This document shows positions 9,070 through 63,968 of a stretch of DNA of 64,000 bases, piece after piece. The translations under genes and the position numbers were made by a program. The notes beneath the pieces were generated by a model, which saw only the letters and a program-made list of their open reading frames with translations, searched no databases and was not told the DNA's origin. Location: assembly GCA_052246995.1 (NCBI GenBank), contig JBQPWD010000002.1:75307-139306 (forward strand), read 5' to 3'. Within the stretch, counting starts at the first letter, position 1, and every line of letters begins with the position of its first letter. This stretch comes from Candidatus Bathyarchaeota archaeon (GTDB lineage: Archaea; Thermoproteota; Bathyarchaeia; Hecatellales; Hecatellaceae).

Positions 9070-9432
9070 TCAGAATGCTAGTAATGCTTCAACTTTCTTA
9101 AGCTGTCTTGTTACAGGGTCTACTTCAAGCCTTAAACCCTTAAGTGCATCAACACCTAAAACTTCAGCATCTTCACTCTCGGCGAAAACAACTATTCTTG
9201 TAGCTTTCTCACCTAAACATTCAACCACAGCCTCACCAATTTCACGCTCAATCACCCTACCCTCAATAGTCTTAAACTTCCATTTTGATGTTGATTTTAT
9301 GTCAAGTTTTTCAAGTTTTTCACGCTTAACCCAGCTGTACGCGCTACCAGTATCCACCAACAACTCTAAATCTAAAGATTTAGACACCTCATAAGGATTG
9401 TAGAGTTTAACTTTAGCTGTTGTATGTCCCAT
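9070..9432 (-). CDS. retropepsin-like (clan AA) aspartic protease, archaeal small form
   Basis: LLVDTGSAYSW catalytic D-T/S-G motif; 120 aa. Confidence 0.6.
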   Translation of the reverse strand: MGHTTAKVKLYNPYEVSKSLDLELLVDTGSAYSWVKREKLEKLDIKSTSKWKFKTIEGRVIEREIGEAVVECLGEKATRIVVFAESEDAEVLGVDALKGLRLEVDPVTRQLKKVEALLAF

Positions 9433-9564: not shown

Positions 9565-10134
9565 TTGAATAGAAAATTTTTAGCTGCGCGTGGAGACCTT
9601 GTAGAGAAGATTAAATACCTTGCTAAAAAAAGAAACTTAACATTGTACTCTGTTGTAAACGAAATCTTAGAACAGTCTTTAAAGTTAGAAGCTACAGGTA
9701 AAACTCTTTCACAAGTTATTGAGGAATACAACATAGTTAAGGCTGTTAAAGATGCAGGCTTCATCCTAACACCTAGAATACTATGGTATGAGCTTCTAAA
9801 AAAACAGGATAATTTAAACATCACCAAATTTTGGAGTGAAACTGGAGAATGGTTTGGAAAATACTGTAAAACAGTTTTCCCCCAAGAAGATATACAAAAA
9901 CTTTTAGAGAAAGTTATCAGCATAGTTTTCTGGGACCTTTCAGAGTGTATTTTAAAAATGGATGGTGAAAAAGCTTTAATCCGATGTATAAGCTCAAACT
10001 ACTCAGAACTTCAAACAAACATTTTATGGGCCTTCCTTTCAGGAATGATGAAGGCTTTCAACTATAAAGCGTTAAAAACCGAGGTAGTTAAAGGAATTGT
10101 TGCCGCAACCTTTGTAAGAGAAATAGGTGGATAG
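9565..10134 (+). CDS. RHH-like (ribbon-helix-helix-like N-terminus) protein, paralog A, with ~130-aa C-terminal domain of unknown function
   Basis: TTG start; N-terminus RKFLAARGDLVEKIKYLAKKRNLTLYSVVNEILEQSL has a beta-strand/two-helix pattern like CopG/RHH; clear paralogy with the next gene; 4-nt gap to it. Confidence 0.5.
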   Translation: MNRKFLAARGDLVEKIKYLAKKRNLTLYSVVNEILEQSLKLEATGKTLSQVIEEYNIVKAVKDAGFILTPRILWYELLKKQDNLNITKFWSETGEWFGKYCKTVFPQEDIQKLLEKVISIVFWDLSECILKMDGEKALIRCISSNYSELQTNILWAFLSGMMKAFNYKALKTEVVKGIVAATFVREIGG

Positions 10135-10138
10135 GGAA

Positions 10139-10753
10139 GTGTCAACATCAAAAAAGTTTGTTGCTGTACGAGGAGACCTTTTACAAAAAATAATTGAAAT
10201 ATCCAACAGGAAAGGTAAAACTGTTTATGGATTTGTAAATGAAATGTTTGAACAGGCAATAAAAGCTGAAGAACTTGATTCAACCCTACCTGAAATTGTG
10301 GATTTTTACGTTTTAGTTAAAGCTTTAAGAAAAGCTGGAGCAGCACTCATCTTCTCAGACATTTTAAACTACTCCATAAAAAGGTTGTATGAGGTTGAAA
10401 AGGAAAAGCTTTTAAAAAGCTGGTTTTCCTCAGGTTTATGGTATGGAAAATTTTTAAAAGCAAAATTTCAAGAACCACTAGAAGTTTTAAAAAAGGTTTT
10501 AACAAGCCTCTTCTTCTTTGAAATCTCTGAAGTTGAATTTTTAAACACTGGTGGAAACAAGTTTACCCTTAAAGTTATCTCTCCAAACCAGCCTCAAGAA
10601 AACACTGAGCTTTTATCAAGCTTTCTTGAAGGATTTTTAGACGCATTAGAATTTAACATCTTAAACAGGGATTGCTGGCGTGGTATAATAGTTTTTGAAG
10701 TTGAAAAAAGAACAAAACTTTCAGAAATGGGCCTCACAGACATGGAAGAATAA
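10139..10753 (+). CDS. RHH-like protein, paralog B (track ORF starts 10127; the GTG at 10139 gives the N-terminus MSTSKKFVAVRGDL, parallel to paralog A)
   Basis: KKFVAVRGDLLQKIIEISNRKGKTVYGFVNEMFEQAI aligns with paralog A; the C-terminal domains also align (WFSSGLWYGKFLKAKF vs FWSETGEWFGKYCKTVF). Confidence 0.5.
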   Translation: MSTSKKFVAVRGDLLQKIIEISNRKGKTVYGFVNEMFEQAIKAEELDSTLPEIVDFYVLVKALRKAGAALIFSDILNYSIKRLYEVEKEKLLKSWFSSGLWYGKFLKAKFQEPLEVLKKVLTSLFFFEISEVEFLNTGGNKFTLKVISPNQPQENTELLSSFLEGFLDALEFNILNRDCWRGIIVFEVEKRTKLSEMGLTDMEE

Positions 10754-10935
10754 GCTTTCCAACATGTTAAAAGATAGTTACATATAAATCAAACTTTCAT
10801 TCAAACCTCACCTAAAATTGAATTGACACCATTTTTTTCAAGTTTAAAGTTAAACTTTACCTGTAAAATTTCTCAAACATTTTACCCTTATTTTAACTAA
10901 AAAAATTTACAAGCTTAATAGAGTTTTAAGTTAAC

Positions 10936-10990: not shown

Positions 10991-11641
10991 TTGACAAAGC
11001 TAACAAAAAACTGGGAAAAAGAATCTCAAGAATCCATTATTAAAAAGATAGGTGAAAAAATACACCATAAAAAAGAGTCCCTCAGGGAAAGAATAGAGTA
11101 TGTTTTATGGAAGCTTAAAACTCAGCATGAAAAACTTGAACAAGCATTAACAAGAATGCAAAACCATGATAAAGAGCTTTTCGAAAAATGTGTAAAAGCT
11201 GAACTTTCAAGAGACCATGCCCGTGCAACAATCTACGCTAATGAATGCGCTGAAGTCAGAAAAATGGCTAGAATAATGATTTTAAGCCAACTTGCACTGG
11301 AAAAAGTTATGCTAAGACTTGAAACAGTTAAAGAGTTTGGTGAAACATTAAAAGAAATAGCTCCAGTTTCAGGTGTAATCCACAACATTAAAGGTAGACT
11401 TTCAGGAATCATCCCCGAAGTATCATATGAGCTTGGAGCTATAAGCGAAATGCTGGATGGAATGGTTACTGAGGTTGGTGAAGCCTCAGGAGTAACAATA
11501 CCGTTTAAAGCTGAAAACGAGGAGTCAAAAAGAATACTTGAAGAGGCCTCAGCTGTTGTTGAACAGAAAATGAAGGAAAAGTTTCCAGAAACACCACCAA
11601 TCTACAAAGAACCCTCAACCAGCAGCTTACATCTAACATAA
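10991..11641 (+). CDS. cdvB: CdvB paralog (ESCRT-III/Snf7 family) lacking the winged-helix domain; proline-rich MIM2-like C-tail
   Basis: HDKELFEKCVKAELSRDHARATIYANECAEVRKMARIMILSQLALEKVMLRLETVKEF closely matches the CdvB core of Sulfolobus (DKDLFEK...ARATIYA...RKM...AIEKV.L.L.TV.E, recalled from memory); C-terminal PETPPIYKEP. Confidence 0.8.
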   Translation: MTKLTKNWEKESQESIIKKIGEKIHHKKESLRERIEYVLWKLKTQHEKLEQALTRMQNHDKELFEKCVKAELSRDHARATIYANECAEVRKMARIMILSQLALEKVMLRLETVKEFGETLKEIAPVSGVIHNIKGRLSGIIPEVSYELGAISEMLDGMVTEVGEASGVTIPFKAENEESKRILEEASAVVEQKMKEKFPETPPIYKEPSTSSLHLT

Positions 11642-11654
11642 CGGCTGGTGGAGG

Positions 11655-12599
11655 ATGAAGTATCCCCGTAAAATTTTTAAAAATATTTTGGAGGTTTTTG
11701 GTAAAATGCGTTTTCACTTTAGCTTCTCAAGAACACCCTTAAAGGAGAAAATTTCTCAGGCAATTTTTAGGCTTGAAACCCAGCTAAACAAGCTTGAACA
11801 ATCAGCCTCAAAACTTCATCAAAGAGATAGAGAAATGTTTGAGAGATGTATTGGTGCTAAAGCCTCGGGGGACGATGCACGTGCAACAATGTATGCTAAC
11901 GAATGTGTTGAAATCAGAAAAATAGCAAAGATTATACTTGCATCACAACTTGCAATAGAAAAAGTTATCCTTAGACTTAGAACAGTTGAAGACGTTGGAG
12001 ACCTTTTAAATCAAATGTCCCCTGTGGCTGGAATAATAAAGGAAACAAGAAACAAGCTTAAGGGGATTGTTCCAGAAGTAGCTTATGAGCTTGAAGAAAT
12101 AAACAACATGCTTGGAAACACCATAATAGAGGCTGGAAAAGCCCCGTTAGAGGAGGCAGCATCAGAGGTTACGTCAGACGAGGCTAAAAAAATTCTTGCT
12201 GAAGCAGCAACAATAGCTGAGCAAAAAATGGGTGAAATCTATCCAAAGCTTCCAATACCACCTCAACCTGAACCTAAAGTTGAGAAGCCTGTAGAGGCTG
12301 TATCACAAGCAGCTTCACAACCAATTCAACAGCCTGAACCTCAACAAACAAAACCAACCCCTGAAGAACCTATCAAACCAGTTATGGAAAAGATGGTGGA
12401 AGAGTCTAAACCTCAGCCATTAAAAGAACTATCCTTAGAAGATTTAGAAAAACTTGAAGGGGAAGTTTTAAACTACATTTACAATCATGGTGGAGAACTA
12501 AGCATAAAAAAATGTGCTGAAACTTTAAATGTGGATGTTGAAGACGTTAGAAAAGTGTTGACAAAGCTGGAGAAAGATGGAAAAATAGTTATAGTTTAG
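11655..12599 (+). CDS. cdvB: CdvB (ESCRT-III) with C-terminal winged-helix domain; probable true start is the ATG at 11706 behind GGAGG
   Basis: RDREMFERCIGAKASGDDARATMYANECVEIRKIAKIILASQLAIEKVILRLRTVEDV; Pro-rich linker (PKLPIPPQPEPK); C-terminal wH LNYIYNHGGELSIKKCAETLNVDVEDVRKVLTKLEKDGKIVIV. Confidence 0.8.
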   Translation: MKYPRKIFKNILEVFGKMRFHFSFSRTPLKEKISQAIFRLETQLNKLEQSASKLHQRDREMFERCIGAKASGDDARATMYANECVEIRKIAKIILASQLAIEKVILRLRTVEDVGDLLNQMSPVAGIIKETRNKLKGIVPEVAYELEEINNMLGNTIIEAGKAPLEEAASEVTSDEAKKILAEAATIAEQKMGEIYPKLPIPPQPEPKVEKPVEAVSQAASQPIQQPEPQQTKPTPEEPIKPVMEKMVEESKPQPLKELSLEDLEKLEGEVLNYIYNHGGELSIKKCAETLNVDVEDVRKVLTKLEKDGKIVIV

Positions 12600-12642: not shown

Positions 12643-13767
12643 ATGAACGGGCTTACCGAGCTTGAAAAGTATGCCTTAAACTATGCTAATGAAGCTGTTA
12701 AACTTGACCGTCAAGGTTTAAAAAACCAGGCTGTTGAGAAGTATCAAAAAGCTGTTGAAGTTTTACTTAAAATTTGCAACCTTTACCCTAACACTCCTCA
12801 AAGCAGAATATACCTTAAATATGTTGAATCTTACAAACGTAGAATAGAAGATATCAAGGGAAACCATGAAGAGGAGCTGGAAACATCAAACATAGATAAA
12901 GAAAAAGTTGTACTACAAACAGAAAAGCCAGGTGTAAAGTGGAACGAAATAGCGAACCTTGAAGAAGCAAAAAAAGCAATTCAAGAAGCAATAATCTACC
13001 CTGTTAAAAGACCAGACCTTTTCCCTCTGGGATGGCCTAGAGGAATCCTACTTTTTGGCCCTCCAGGTTGCGGTAAAACTTTGCTTGCAGCTGCGGTTGC
13101 AAGCGAGATTGATGCAAACTTTTACTCTGTTGATGCAGCGTCAGTAATGTCTAAATGGCTTGGAGAATCTGAAAAAAACGTTGCAGCACTTTTTACAGAA
13201 GCAAGAAAGTCTGCTGAAAACGGTAAACCTTCGATAATATTTGTTGATGAAGTTGACTCTTTAACAAGAACCTTCTCAACAGAGGTTGGAGGTGAAACTA
13301 GGGTTAGAAACCAATTTCTCAAAGAAATGGATGGAATAAACGACAAAAACAGAAAACATTTTGTCTACGTTATTGCAGCCACAAACAAACCATGGCTTCT
13401 AGACGAACCCTTTATCAGAAGATTCCAAAAAAGAATTCTCATCCCGCCTCCAGATTATCATGCCCGCCTAGAAATGTTTAAAATTTACGGTAAAGACCTA
13501 AACTTATCACCAAACGTGGATTTCATGGAGCTTGCAAGAAAAACTGAAGGTTACAATGGAAGTGATATAAGAGACATCTTCCAAACAGTTCAACTTAAAG
13601 TTGTAAGAGAATTTTTTAACAACCAAAAAGCCGACGACCCCAACCTAAAACCAAGACCAATTCAAATGGAAGACTTTCTAGAAATTATTGAAAAAAGAAA
13701 ACCAAGCATCTCACAAGAAATGTTAAAACAATATGTTAACTGGTTTGAAAAGTTTAAAGCCCTATAA
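12643..13767 (+). CDS. cdvC: CdvC / Vps4-like AAA+ ATPase with N-terminal MIT domain
   Basis: N-terminal three-helix MIT-like region (YALNYANEAVKLDRQGLKNQAVEKYQKAVEVLLKI); Walker A GPPGCGKT; Walker B IIFVDEVDS; AAA second-region motifs. Confidence 0.85.
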   Translation: MNGLTELEKYALNYANEAVKLDRQGLKNQAVEKYQKAVEVLLKICNLYPNTPQSRIYLKYVESYKRRIEDIKGNHEEELETSNIDKEKVVLQTEKPGVKWNEIANLEEAKKAIQEAIIYPVKRPDLFPLGWPRGILLFGPPGCGKTLLAAAVASEIDANFYSVDAASVMSKWLGESEKNVAALFTEARKSAENGKPSIIFVDEVDSLTRTFSTEVGGETRVRNQFLKEMDGINDKNRKHFVYVIAATNKPWLLDEPFIRRFQKRILIPPPDYHARLEMFKIYGKDLNLSPNVDFMELARKTEGYNGSDIRDIFQTVQLKVVREFFNNQKADDPNLKPRPIQMEDFLEIIEKRKPSISQEMLKQYVNWFEKFKAL

Positions 13768-19075: not shown

Positions 19076-19083
19076 AAAACATT

Positions 19084-41478: not shown

Positions 41479-42097
41479 TCAGGATGATTGGAAGGCCAAA
41501 ACAAGTGAGTTCTTCTTCATTTTCTGGCTAACATTCTTATCATAACCGTAAACATCAACCTTCTTTTGTCAAAATAAACGAAATTTTTAGGATGATTTAA
41601 AAAATTCTGCCAAATAGATCTTTGGTTGACTGGTCTAACAAGAGATGACCATTATTGCTACATTAGAAAAACTAACAGCTTAATAACGGAGAAATATCCA
41701 GAACGTCAAAACTTTCCAGTTAGATGTAAACACAAAAGCATGAAAACGTATGCTAAAAGCCTTAAAAATCTTTTTCAGAGATTTTAGTCGGAAATTCCTT
41801 AAATTGTTGTCAGCTTCAAGTTTCCTTCTTAGGCACATTTTCCTAAAGAAAATACCAACTAGTGATAAGTTAAAAAATCAGACATCGATATGGACGCGAA
41901 TATTTCACATTACCCATTCTTTAAGAACAAAGACGATTGTTTTCGTTTTTCAATGGAAAAGCTGAAAATGTTTTGAATAGAGTATATTAACGTTAAAGCC
42001 ATAAGGTAGGCTATTTGTGTAAAGGGAAGAAAGCTTATGTCTTTTGAAGTTGCAATGAGGAAAAACTTGGATAAAAATAACCGTAAAAGATAGTTGA

Positions 42098-42183
42098 CGC
42101 CGGGGACGGGATTTGAACCCGTGCGGCGCAAACGCGCCACAGGCTTAGCAGGCCTGCGCCCTACCAGGCTAGGCGACCCCGGC
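42098..42183 (-). tRNA. tRNA-Ser (anticodon GCT) with a long variable arm
   Basis: Reverse complement folds as acceptor GCCGGGG/CCCCGGC, anticodon stem CAGGC/GCCTG with loop CTGCTAA, 17-nt variable arm, T-arm ACGGG-TTCAAAT-CCCGT, discriminator G. Confidence 0.85.
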
Positions 42184-42384
42184 AATTATCCCCTAGCTAA
42201 CAAATTATTGTCACGTCTATTAGGTGGTTTGTTATCATACAAACATACATAGGTATAGATATTTTTATGTTTTTGTTTGGAGTAAAGTCAGCGCTTATAC
42301 GAGCTTTTTTTTTATAACCGCAACTCCTCAAATAGCTCTATCCAGTTTGTTGATAAGAAGCCTTATATTTCTTCGTATACTGAT

Positions 42385-47116: not shown

Positions 47117-47195
47117 TGGTGGGGCCGGCCGGATTTGAACCGGCGATCTGGCGGGCCCAAGCCGCCAAGCGTAGACCAGGCTAGCCCACGGCCCC
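47117..47195 (-). tRNA. tRNA-Pro (anticodon TGG), CCA encoded
   Basis: Reverse complement has acceptor GGGGCCG/CGGCCCC, anticodon stem GGCGG/CCGCC with loop CTTGGGC, T-arm GCCGG-TTCAAAT-CCGGC, then ACCA. Confidence 0.85.
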
Positions 47196-60605: not shown

Positions 60606-61667
60606 ATGCAGGAAGACTTCTCTAACTTTGAATCTGTCGCCAGATGGATAAGTAACTTTCCAGATAGACCAAACACGAAGAAGAATTATCTTATTAGATT
60701 TAAAAAGTTTATTGATTGGATAGGAAAAAATCCTGATGACCTTATTGCTGAAGCAAAGAAAAATCCCCTAAAAATTCATAATAAAATAAAAGAATACTAT
60801 AATTTTTTAATAAAGAAAGGTTTTAGCTCTAAGACAGCTATCCTCTCCTATAATTGTTTAAGGTCCTTTTTCAAATGGAACGATATATTTTTAGGACCAA
60901 CCCCCCGAGGATTTAAAGGTAGGGTTGAATATGAATCTTCCCATATTTTAACACCTGAAGAGATTGCAAAAATGGTTGATGTATGTAATAACATGCGAGA
61001 TAGATGTGTGATAACTTTTTTAGCTCAATCAGGACAACGTAGTGGGGTTTTAACGGCTCTTAGATATGGGCATGTTAAATCTGGGTTAGAAAGAGGAGAG
61101 ACACCATTAATAATTGAAGTTCCAGCTGTTTTAAGAAATATTAATGGTGTAAATGTAAACAAGCTTGGAGAAAGCTATAGGTTTGCTGTTGGAAATGATA
61201 GTATTACATGTCTTAAAATGATGCTCAAGGAGAGAATTGAGAGCGGAGAAGTTATTGATAAGGATAGTTGGCTTTTTAGAAGTTATTCAAAAGTTAAAGT
61301 TGAAAAAAGTGGGAAAAAAAGGCCTATTAGAGCATCAAAGAGTGAAAGAGGTTTTCCTTTAACAACAGTAGCTATACGTGAAATAATTAATAAGTCTGCT
61401 TTAAAAGCAGGAATTCAGGGAAAAGCTTCAGACAAAAGGTATGAGGTTCATCCGCATATTTTCAGGAGATATTGGAATATGAGAATGCAGGAAGCAGGAT
61501 TAAGTGAAGATCTAAGGGATTTTATGCTTGGACATAAGTTACCTTATGGTGGAGCGTACAGCAAATGGTATCCTGATGCTATTAAAAGAGTATGGATTTC
61601 AAAAAATGTTGAAAAATATATTGCAATTCCATCAAAAACAATCTACGCGTATTCTGGACTACTTTAA
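60606..61667 (+). CDS. int: tyrosine recombinase / integrase (XerC/D-like fold)
   Basis: C-terminal catalytic motifs HPHIFRRYW (H-x-x-R), LGHK and nucleophile Y in YGGAY; N-terminal core-binding-like domain; intact 353 aa. Confidence 0.8.
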   Translation: MQEDFSNFESVARWISNFPDRPNTKKNYLIRFKKFIDWIGKNPDDLIAEAKKNPLKIHNKIKEYYNFLIKKGFSSKTAILSYNCLRSFFKWNDIFLGPTPRGFKGRVEYESSHILTPEEIAKMVDVCNNMRDRCVITFLAQSGQRSGVLTALRYGHVKSGLERGETPLIIEVPAVLRNINGVNVNKLGESYRFAVGNDSITCLKMMLKERIESGEVIDKDSWLFRSYSKVKVEKSGKKRPIRASKSERGFPLTTVAIREIINKSALKAGIQGKASDKRYEVHPHIFRRYWNMRMQEAGLSEDLRDFMLGHKLPYGGAYSKWYPDAIKRVWISKNVEKYIAIPSKTIYAYSGLL

Positions 61668-63874: not shown

Positions 63875-63968
63875 TGGTAGCCCGGGGGAGATTCGAACTC
63901 CCGTCGGCAGGTTTCTCCTATCTTGGATAACCAGAGCCTGCCATGCTTGGCCGCTACACCACCGGGCT
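63875..63968 (-). tRNA. tRNA-Gln (anticodon CTG) with an about 18-nt intron in the anticodon loop; A1:U72 first pair; CCA encoded
   Basis: Reverse complement: acceptor AGCCCGG/CCGGGCT, anticodon stem GCAGG/CCTGC enclosing 25 nt (CTCTGG + about 18-nt insert + A), T-arm GGGAG-TTCGAAT-CTCCC, discriminator A then CCA; 91 nt without CCA. Confidence 0.75.

Follow-up and report, generated by a model that had tools for sequence, protein, structure and literature searches.

Archaeal ESCRT-III has a single known membrane recruiter, CdvA, which docks on the winged helix of CdvB. A 64,000-nucleotide stretch of a Candidatus Bathyarchaeota genome (contig JBQPWD010000002.1 of assembly GCA_052246995.1, positions 75,307 to 139,306 of the forward strand; hereafter the window, with positions counted from its first nucleotide) encodes two adjacent CdvB paralogs, one of which carries a C-terminal winged helix (wH), and raises the question of what this domain binds in a locus that lacks cdvA. 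The answer that emerges from the comparisons described below is that the locus very probably represents the core Cdv operon of Hecatellales-like Bathyarchaeia, with two ancient, differentiated CdvB paralogs that would act in a relay similar to that of Sulfolobales, and with cdvA probably moved elsewhere. As a whole, the locus is a mostly ordinary, modest clade-specific variant of a known system, and its only unusual point is the absence of cdvA from the operon.

The cdv region consists of five co-oriented genes on the forward strand, namely two paralogs of a family denoted here X (X1 and X2), a short cdvB, a cdvB with the wH, and cdvC. X1 and X2 overlap by 8 nucleotides (nt), X2 is separated from the short cdvB by 237 nt of AT-rich sequence, the two cdvB genes are 13 nt apart, and 43 nt separate the wH cdvB from cdvC. 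The short cdvB (10991..11641) starts with a TTG codon located 8 nt after a GGAGGG ribosome-binding site and encodes a 216-aa protein that comprises the ESCRT-III core only. The wH cdvB (11655..12599) encodes the core followed by a disordered linker rich in proline and glutamate and by the wH. The downstream gene (12643..13767; 374 aa) encodes CdvC/Vps4, an AAA+ ATPase with an N-terminal MIT domain (NCBIfam CdvC, 5.7e-161; Pfam MIT, 4e-9, AAA, 1e-38, and Vps4_C, 3e-7). Two start codons are possible for the wH cdvB: the ATG at 11655 abuts a GGAGG sequence, and the ATG at 11706 sits 12 nt past another one. The first-pass annotation of this DNA favored the latter, with a protein of about 300 aa; the resulting 297-aa form is indeed possible, but the 314-aa form that starts at 11655 is annotated as well, both starts being used in public gene calls, and the extension that distinguishes it (17 residues, MKYPRKIFKNILEVFGK, encoded at 11655-11705) is conserved at the amino acid level in a relative with 86% identity. 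Several other wH-CdvB orthologs also possess short hydrophobic and basic N-terminal extensions. The extension may be a candidate membrane-binding helix, and the true start is left ambiguous here.

Judging by profile matches, both genes are members of the CdvB family that fall outside the curated orthogroups of Sulfolobales. The short copy matches the NCBIfam profile CdvB1/B2 with an E-value of 6e-60 (202 bits) and the CdvB profile with 1e-42 (147 bits), the respective values for the wH copy are 2e-55 (188 bits) and 2e-46 (159 bits), and the wH copy also matches Pfam Snf7 (3e-6); the equivalog cut-offs of these two NCBIfam profiles, 350 bits for CdvB1/B2 and 370 bits for CdvB, are reached by neither protein. 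The closest sequences with solved structures to the wH CdvB are CdvB2 (9s97, 3e-42) and CdvB (9s9j, 3e-32) of Saccharolobus. An AlphaFold2 model of the wH CdvB, obtained with 20 orthologs (mean predicted local distance difference test score, pLDDT, 79.6), shows a five-helix ESCRT-III core (helices at residues 12-53, 57-92, 97-118, 123-143 and 158-178, with pLDDT above 90), in which a long hairpin of the first two helices precedes three shorter ones; residues 179-243 are disordered, and the wH beyond them has three helices. A Foldseek search started with this model retrieves the CdvB2 filament and the closed CdvB of Saccharolobus as the best matches in the PDB, with E-values from 1e-11 to 6e-9 and template modelling (TM) scores of 0.85-0.88. 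The fold model was built for the wH copy only, and the short copy aligns with it along the entire core.

In both proteins, the fifth helix is directly followed by a proline-rich motif of the form [FYL]Px[LTI]P, which is present in 98 of the 102 short copies and in all 86 wH copies compared. In the short copy of the window, this MIM2-like motif is FPETPPIYKEP (residues 198-208, encoded at 11582..11614), and in the wH copy it is YPKLPIPP (residues 196-203 of the 314-aa form, 12240..12263); the two occupy the position of LPDLPHPP in Saccharolobus CdvB (9s9j) and of FPSLP in CdvB2. The motifs are predicted to bind the MIT domain of CdvC. The first-pass annotation described two CdvB paralogs side by side, the first a minimal core that ends with a PETPPIYKEP tail and the second with an added linker and wH. 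This description holds in each respect: both open reading frames (ORFs) lie at the positions that it gave and match the family HMMs (hidden Markov models), the 216-aa protein terminates with ...KEKFPETPPIYKEPSTSSLHLT, and the sequences that were quoted for the linker and the wH are present, with the 2XVC_A alignment, PF27303 and the AlphaFold2 model (see below) in agreement.

Metagenome contigs were scanned with an alignment of wH-CdvB orthologs, which yielded 80 loci. These, and additional loci that came from other routes, were classified with purpose-built HMMs of CdvA, CdvC, the X proteins, and the core and wH parts of CdvB. The more than 90 loci (given here with L numbers) fall into two types that share the order short cdvB, wH cdvB, cdvC. 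The X-type, X1-X2-Bshort-BwH-CdvC, includes the window, the Hecatella loci L001-3, L009-L019 and L108-113; the wH copies of this type are at least 49% identical to that of the window, compared with 41-47% for the other type. Proteins nearly identical to those of the window come from metagenome-assembled genomes (MAGs) annotated as Candidatus Bathyarchaeota, and more distant orthologs with the same locus come from Candidatus Hecatellales, Hecatellaceae and Candidatus Hecatella orcuttiae. The A-type, Bshort-CdvA-BwH-CdvC (L006, L020-L086, L094), comprises more than 60 metagenomic loci in which the cdvB genes are separated by a canonical cdvA; the product of this gene has the PRC barrel and the CdvA coiled coil (PF18822) and ends in a hydrophobic strand, e.g., DQVMVLHVRET or DLIVVKLLD. 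The X family HMM gives no match in any A-type locus.

The published bathyarchaeal loci are of the A-type: Table S1 of Makarova et al. 2024 lists CdvB (KYH37565), CdvA (KYH37566) and CdvB (KYH37567) consecutively in Bathyarchaeota B24, and the same study reports adjacent CdvA and CdvB in BA2 and B24-2; another paper states that a full CdvABC set is encoded by Bathyarchaeia. In a soil clade, A-type loci are extended on the upstream side by a gene for a Zn-ribbon CdvA-like protein and on the downstream side by a third cdvB together with another cdvA-like gene. In locus L087, cdvA directly precedes the wH-CdvB gene, as is the case in Sulfolobales, so the core order of the A-type is most likely the ancestral one, from which the clade of the window would have lost cdvA at this locus. 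The first-pass annotation held that its reading would fail if the tandem were a standard arrangement in a described clade with a canonical CdvA partner. For the most part, this is what is found, in that the order is standard and the described members have CdvA, but the Hecatellales-like clade itself is without cdvA in the locus.

Soil loci of the A-type (L020, L023, L024 and others) accommodate, in a space of about 8 kb, three genes for CdvB paralogs and three for proteins similar to CdvA. One of the latter proteins ends with a Zn ribbon and contains a long linker that is disordered, as well as the internal strand ALVVKVVDD.

The two cdvB genes of the window are an ancient, class-wide paralog pair rather than a recent local duplicate, judging from sequence identities and a neighbor-joining tree of 54 CdvB cores (185 columns, 500 bootstraps) that included both paralogs from nine other X-type and eight A-type loci, Sulfolobales references and unassigned hits. 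The cores of the two proteins are only 44-45% identical to each other, and the short and wH copies show 61% and 64% identity, respectively, to their counterparts in Ca. Hecatella orcuttiae. All wH-bearing copies from Bathyarchaeia form a single clade with 81% bootstrap support, the two genes of the window are sisters in 0 of the 500 bootstraps, and the short copies of all bathyarchaeal cdv loci examined are orthologs of the one in the window. The tandem had been taken as a sign of local duplication, in which case either the short copy would have arisen recently from the wH copy, with loss of the tail, or the wH copy would be the duplicate and have gained one. Such an origin would account for the adjacency of the genes on the same strand with a gap of only 13 nt, and for the shared core architecture with the same proline-rich motif. 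Nevertheless, it is extremely improbable, given that each copy is closer to its ortholog in Hecatella and in A-type Bathyarchaeia (51-64% identity) than to its neighbor, that the neighbors never group together in the tree, and that the identical pair is found in every locus examined in this class.

The wH of the second paralog (residues 268-314, 12456..12596) is conserved as well. The last 46 residues of this protein align convincingly with the wH of the ESCRT-III protein of S. solfataricus (PDB 2XVC_A; ELLDYIVNNGG against EVLNYIYNHGG), with an E-value of 0.027, and PF27303, CdvB_HTH, is a weak precomputed match in public gene calls. In the model, the domain consists of three helices with pLDDT of 87-93, has no wing hairpin, and leaves the C-terminal strand DGKIVIV unpaired. 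The 'broken' wH of 2XVC is reportedly completed by the ESCRT-III-binding (E3B) strand of CdvA, and the unpaired strand in the model fits a domain of this kind awaiting a CdvA strand. The wH domain is retained in all 20 aligned orthologs, with no variation at its G, C, L and I positions among X-type and A-type copies. Judging from this pattern, the wH remains under constraint in X-type proteins.

Where, then, is cdvA? The first-pass annotation noted none near the cdvB pair, and this is confirmed across the whole 64-kb window: essentially all ORFs of at least 110 aa give no Pfam match to CdvA or the PRC barrel, tblastn with nine CdvA or CdvA-like queries finds none, and a CdvA HMM run against the six-frame translation detects nothing at E-values up to 10, although the same HMM detects the Nitrososphaera CdvA in L095 and L096. 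Moreover, CdvA matches are absent from all X-type loci, a result that covers the window itself and, for L001 and L109, flanks of ±10 kb. A word-indexed protein search with two CdvA sequences retrieved only 4 proteins, and a genome scan with a two-sequence CdvA alignment retrieved only 5 loci. Solitary cdvA genes, without any cdvB or cdvC within 10 kb, do occur in MAGs of Bathyarchaeia. One is found in L092 (MAG CAZQWG01) and in the related L090 and L091, in the order S8e, cdvA, Gar1, TFB, with a product that ends in ...PESFVMTE; the other, in L093/L097 (GCA_964569845.1, 34% GC), encodes a protein with the E3B-like tail RRPFVVRLQPE. A CdvA identical to that of L093 is encoded on a contig of metagenome Ga0180301, which holds four different X-type loci, and the 90% identity cluster of this protein includes a Guaymas MAG, DRO51; the X-type MAGs DRO26, 30, 36, 52 and 53 belong to that series as well. 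The GC content of the solitary-cdvA contigs (34% and 47-49%) also matches that of the X-type loci (33-38% and 48-51%). Given these solitary genes with E3B-like tails, the shared metagenome and the matching GC content, relocation is the most economical reading, and cdvA probably resides elsewhere in genomes that have an X-type locus.

One ORF of the window (9070-9432, reverse strand) attracted weak tblastn hits with CdvA N-termini (E = 0.4-0.6), but it contains the DTGS motif of retropepsins, and the hits were judged to be due to chance. This 120-aa ORF matches the retropepsin-like aspartyl protease family PF13975 (6e-5), and in Ca. Hecatella orcuttiae a homolog (L001, 1384-1734) is found close to the cdv and S-layer genes. 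Another observation concerns the region 9300-10684 of L093 (equivalent to L097, 9318-10693), where the solitary cdvA comes after a gene for a 215-218-aa protein that combines a Zn ribbon at the N-terminus with the E3B-like strand MRLTIVKEAP and a CdvB-like wH; the Zn ribbon resembles the C-terminal one of the CdvA-like proteins of about 360 aa from soil A-type loci. This protein was considered as a marker of lineage and dismissed, its wH being equally distant (27-43% identity) from the X-type and the A-type CdvB domains.

The X genes, X1 (9565..10134, 189 aa) and X2 (10127..10753, 208 aa, with a short acidic disordered C-terminal tail), precede the cdvB genes in the window. Each is predicted to encode an N-terminal ribbon-helix-helix (RHH)-like motif and a V4R/H-NOX-like domain. 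The two proteins show 34% identity to each other, compared with 46% between X1 and its own ortholog in L001, and each has its own ortholog in Hecatella. The family is archaeal, lacks a Pfam model, and is usually represented by tandem paralog pairs or by fusions of about 400 aa. A profile search of 1.8 billion representative proteins collected 314 clusters at 50% identity, mostly of 190-200 aa, along with several tandem fusions of the latter size. Across 110 members, the recurrent Pfam matches are to RHH_5, RHH_1, DUF6364 and HNOB; the RHH_1 and RHH_5 matches support the earlier description of the upstream paralogs as RHH-like. The model of X2 (pLDDT 74) contains an N-terminal two-helix unit, a helical middle part, and a confidently predicted beta-beta-alpha-beta-beta domain; the best match among PDB sequences is MJ1460, with a non-significant E-value of 0.47. 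Some X2 orthologs (155-157 aa) have no N-terminal part. From the models and profile matches, the family is best described as combining an RHH unit with a V4R/H-NOX-like sensor domain, in the form of a hetero-pair or a pseudo-dimer, and X1 and X2 would most simply be a heterodimeric ligand-responsive transcription factor.

Outside the clade of the window, X genes are not found beside cdv genes: L004 carries three fused copies near an ArsA/Get3-like ATPase, L114 has an X tandem pair without a downstream cdvB, and L115 has a single X gene beside a Roadblock-small-GTPase fusion. That X1 and X2 might be diverged forms of CdvA was examined and rejected, in that neither Pfam, NCBIfam nor two purpose-built CdvA HMMs produce a match, and the fold, with an RHH-like unit, helices and an alpha/beta V4R-like domain, differs from that of CdvA and has neither the PRC barrel nor the coiled coil of PF18822. 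The C-terminal tail of X2 was likewise set aside as an E3B mimic: it is acidic and poorly conserved, unlike the hydrophobic CdvA strands VMVLHV, IVVKLL and FVVRL.

In the mechanism that these comparisons suggest by analogy with Sulfolobales, the wH CdvB would be the first, template ESCRT-III subunit, the wH of which captures the beta-strand E3B tail of CdvA and so brings about recruitment to the membrane. The short CdvB would join later, as a constricting subunit similar to CdvB1/B2, and polymerise together with the template, and the MIT domain of CdvC/Vps4 would grip the proline-rich MIM2-type motif of both CdvB proteins, with disassembly of the polymer as the outcome.

Several considerations weigh against this scheme and against the relocation of cdvA. 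The roles of the paralogs are transferred from Sulfolobales, so that the locus supplies the list of parts and the interactions between these parts are predicted. Both cores give better scores with the profile of CdvB1/B2 than with that of CdvB, below the equivalog cut-offs in each case, so one-to-one orthology with the Sulfolobales proteins is not established, and bootstrap support for the monophyly of the short copies is weak (29%). The arguments from shared samples and GC content are circumstantial: when assemblies, samples and accession blocks were compared between the solitary CdvA and the X-type clusters, the sole overlap was Ga0180301, with the Guaymas MAGs being different ones, and the solitary cdvA paralogs could belong to A-type genomes. 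The X1/X2 pair, the special promoter (see below) and the lack of cdvA may reflect a single historical event in one clade. Finally, contigs related to the window carry CetZ/tubulin genes (L001, L108 and L006).

The presence of these tubulin-family genes near cdv loci, along with the documented ESCRT-dependent formation of vesicles in Sulfolobales, leads to the idea that the operon serves the budding of extracellular vesicles or some other membrane remodelling, and that division is carried out by a tubulin-family system. The present data fit cytokinesis and vesicle budding alike, but the full CdvB/CdvB/CdvC set with a wH is the division-type set of Sulfolobales, and the CetZ proteins of haloarchaea act on cell shape and are not known to drive division, which makes this role unlikely for the operon.

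A more radical proposal is that the Hecatellales-like clade truly has no CdvA and that the wH binds another partner, such as X1/X2, another protein with an E3B-like strand, or DNA. Here X1 and X2, with a C-terminal fold similar to Bet3/TRAPP, would replace CdvA as the adaptor, e.g., via the acidic tail of X2. The complementarity is strict, with no CdvA match in X-type loci and no X match in A-type loci; in all X-type loci, X1 and X2 come immediately before the cdv genes, the existence of X-X forms, in tandem or fused, hints at an obligate pair, and the X homolog that adjoins the Roadblock-small-GTPase fusion has a trafficking-like context. However, the complementarity may be the result of one evolutionary event, the X proteins lack the PRC barrel, the CdvA coiled coil and a hydrophobic E3B-like tail, and their RHH-like N-terminus is a DNA-binding motif, and some X2 orthologs lack the N-terminal part; furthermore, X genes are away from cdv genes outside the clade of the window, and solitary cdvA genes do exist in Bathyarchaeia. 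A complete loss of CdvA is accordingly improbable. The same slim chance attaches to the boldest statement of this view, in which the operon, uncoupled from CdvA, is located beside, or placed under, an RHH and V4R/H-NOX-like pair and its promoter element, no CdvA remains, and the wH is completed by a different partner such as X1/X2; if true, this would be a novel mode of anchoring for archaeal ESCRT-III. The preferred interpretation thus remains that of a core Cdv operon from which cdvA has moved.

The intergenic region between X2 and the short cdvB contains two conserved blocks that are absent from A-type loci. The upstream block, AGTTAAACTTTACCTGTAAAA (10848..10868, forward strand; consensus ARTTGAAnTTTTyCyTGTAAAA), is found in the same place in all X-type loci for which sequence is available there, at a GC content of 33-55%. 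It is located about 38 nt upstream of a box similar to the transcription factor B recognition element (BRE) and TATA box, TTACAAGCTTAATAGA (10907..10922, forward strand), which is about 70 nt upstream of the start of the short cdvB and is nearly invariant in X-type loci, with the form CTACAAG(G)CTTAATAGA. By comparison with the archaeal BRE/TATA consensus, this box is predicted to work as a promoter, and the upstream block looks like a putative regulatory element. RHH factors, namely aCcr1 and CdrS, control division genes in archaea (PMC9976878), and by this analogy it is a reasonable idea that X1 and X2 might act on the conserved element. A search for signs of autoregulation found no element common across lineages upstream of X1. 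A second copy of the element, at position 19082 on the reverse strand, was discarded: it is a palindrome with 6-nt arms between convergent genes, and is likely due to chance or a terminator.

Compared with the cdvA-cdvB-cdvC locus and the dispersed cdvB1, cdvB2 and cdvB3 genes of Sulfolobales (Lindas 2008; Samson 2008, 2011), the window shares the ESCRT-III fold, a wH on only one of the paralogs, the proline-rich MIM2-type motif after helix 5, and a gene for MIT-bearing CdvC directly downstream. Unlike in Sulfolobales, the paralog without the wH belongs to the operon and immediately precedes the wH paralog, and the locus has no cdvA; the identity of the cores is only 34-43%, and the linker between the core and the wH is much longer (about 65 residues). 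With the A-type Bathyarchaeia (B24, BA2, B24-2, L006, L020-L086 and L094), the window has in common the same orthologous cdvB pair in the same order, cdvC, the wH and the MIM2-like motifs, but its clade has neither the in-locus cdvA nor the extra genes of the soil loci, and possesses instead X1/X2, a different promoter and linked S-layer genes. The thaumarchaeal (Nitrososphaeria) Cdv system resembles that of the window in comprising several CdvB paralogs and CdvC, and in that cdvA is distant from cdvB and cdvC. The conserved wH of the window is a difference, given that Makarova et al. 2024 found no thaumarchaeal CdvB with a wH. Similarly to aCcr1 of Sulfolobales and CdrS of Haloarchaea, X1 and X2 have a predicted RHH motif and a genetic link to division genes, so they are plausible regulators of the operon. 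Nevertheless, aCcr1 and CdrS are proteins of about 60 aa that consist of the RHH alone, whereas X1 and X2 are about 190-210 aa long, contain the V4R/H-NOX-like domain and form a paralogous pair; the conserved element, located upstream of the TATA box, is unlike the aCcr1-box, and the regulatory role of X1/X2 is a prediction.

If cdvA has merely moved, as is most likely, the locus is simply one more cdv gene order to be listed for TACK archaea. Should it be true that the clade retains the wH without any CdvA, a second mechanism of ESCRT-III recruitment would be needed, and the case would inform ideas on the anchoring of ESCRT-III in the time before ESCRT-I and ESCRT-II existed. The conserved promoter of a division operon in this uncultured class, together with the putative RHH/sensor pair, provides a testable handle on the regulation of the cell cycle in Bathyarchaeia.

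The surroundings of the operon are conserved in X-type loci, with genes for an SlaA-like S-layer protein, a coiled-coil protein and an Ig-like protein upstream, and those for an M20 peptidase, CofD and CofC downstream. In the window, the upstream trio is located at 2425-7665, before X1/X2, and encodes the SlaA-like protein (1114 aa), the coiled-coil protein (262 aa, DUF7310-like) and the Ig-like protein (362 aa); it keeps its position in L001, L012 and L109, so that S-layer and cdv genes are syntenic in this clade.

CetZ/tubulin-family genes are found within a few kb of both types of cdv loci, at positions 1-132 of L001, 1-769 of L108 and 674-1804 of L006. In L006, there is also an actin-family gene near the cdv locus, and thus several cytoskeletal systems are clustered in Bathyarchaeia. 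Near the distal end of the window, a tyrosine recombinase of the phage integrase family (60606-61667; 1.6e-11) is encoded about 2 kb from a tRNA-Gln gene and could mark the edge of an integrated element. ARAGORN predicts tRNA genes at 42096-42184, 47117-47195 and 63875-63968, among which only the tRNA-Ser reaches the Rfam gathering score; the 94-nt call at 63875-63968, the tRNA-Gln, may hold an archaeal intron.

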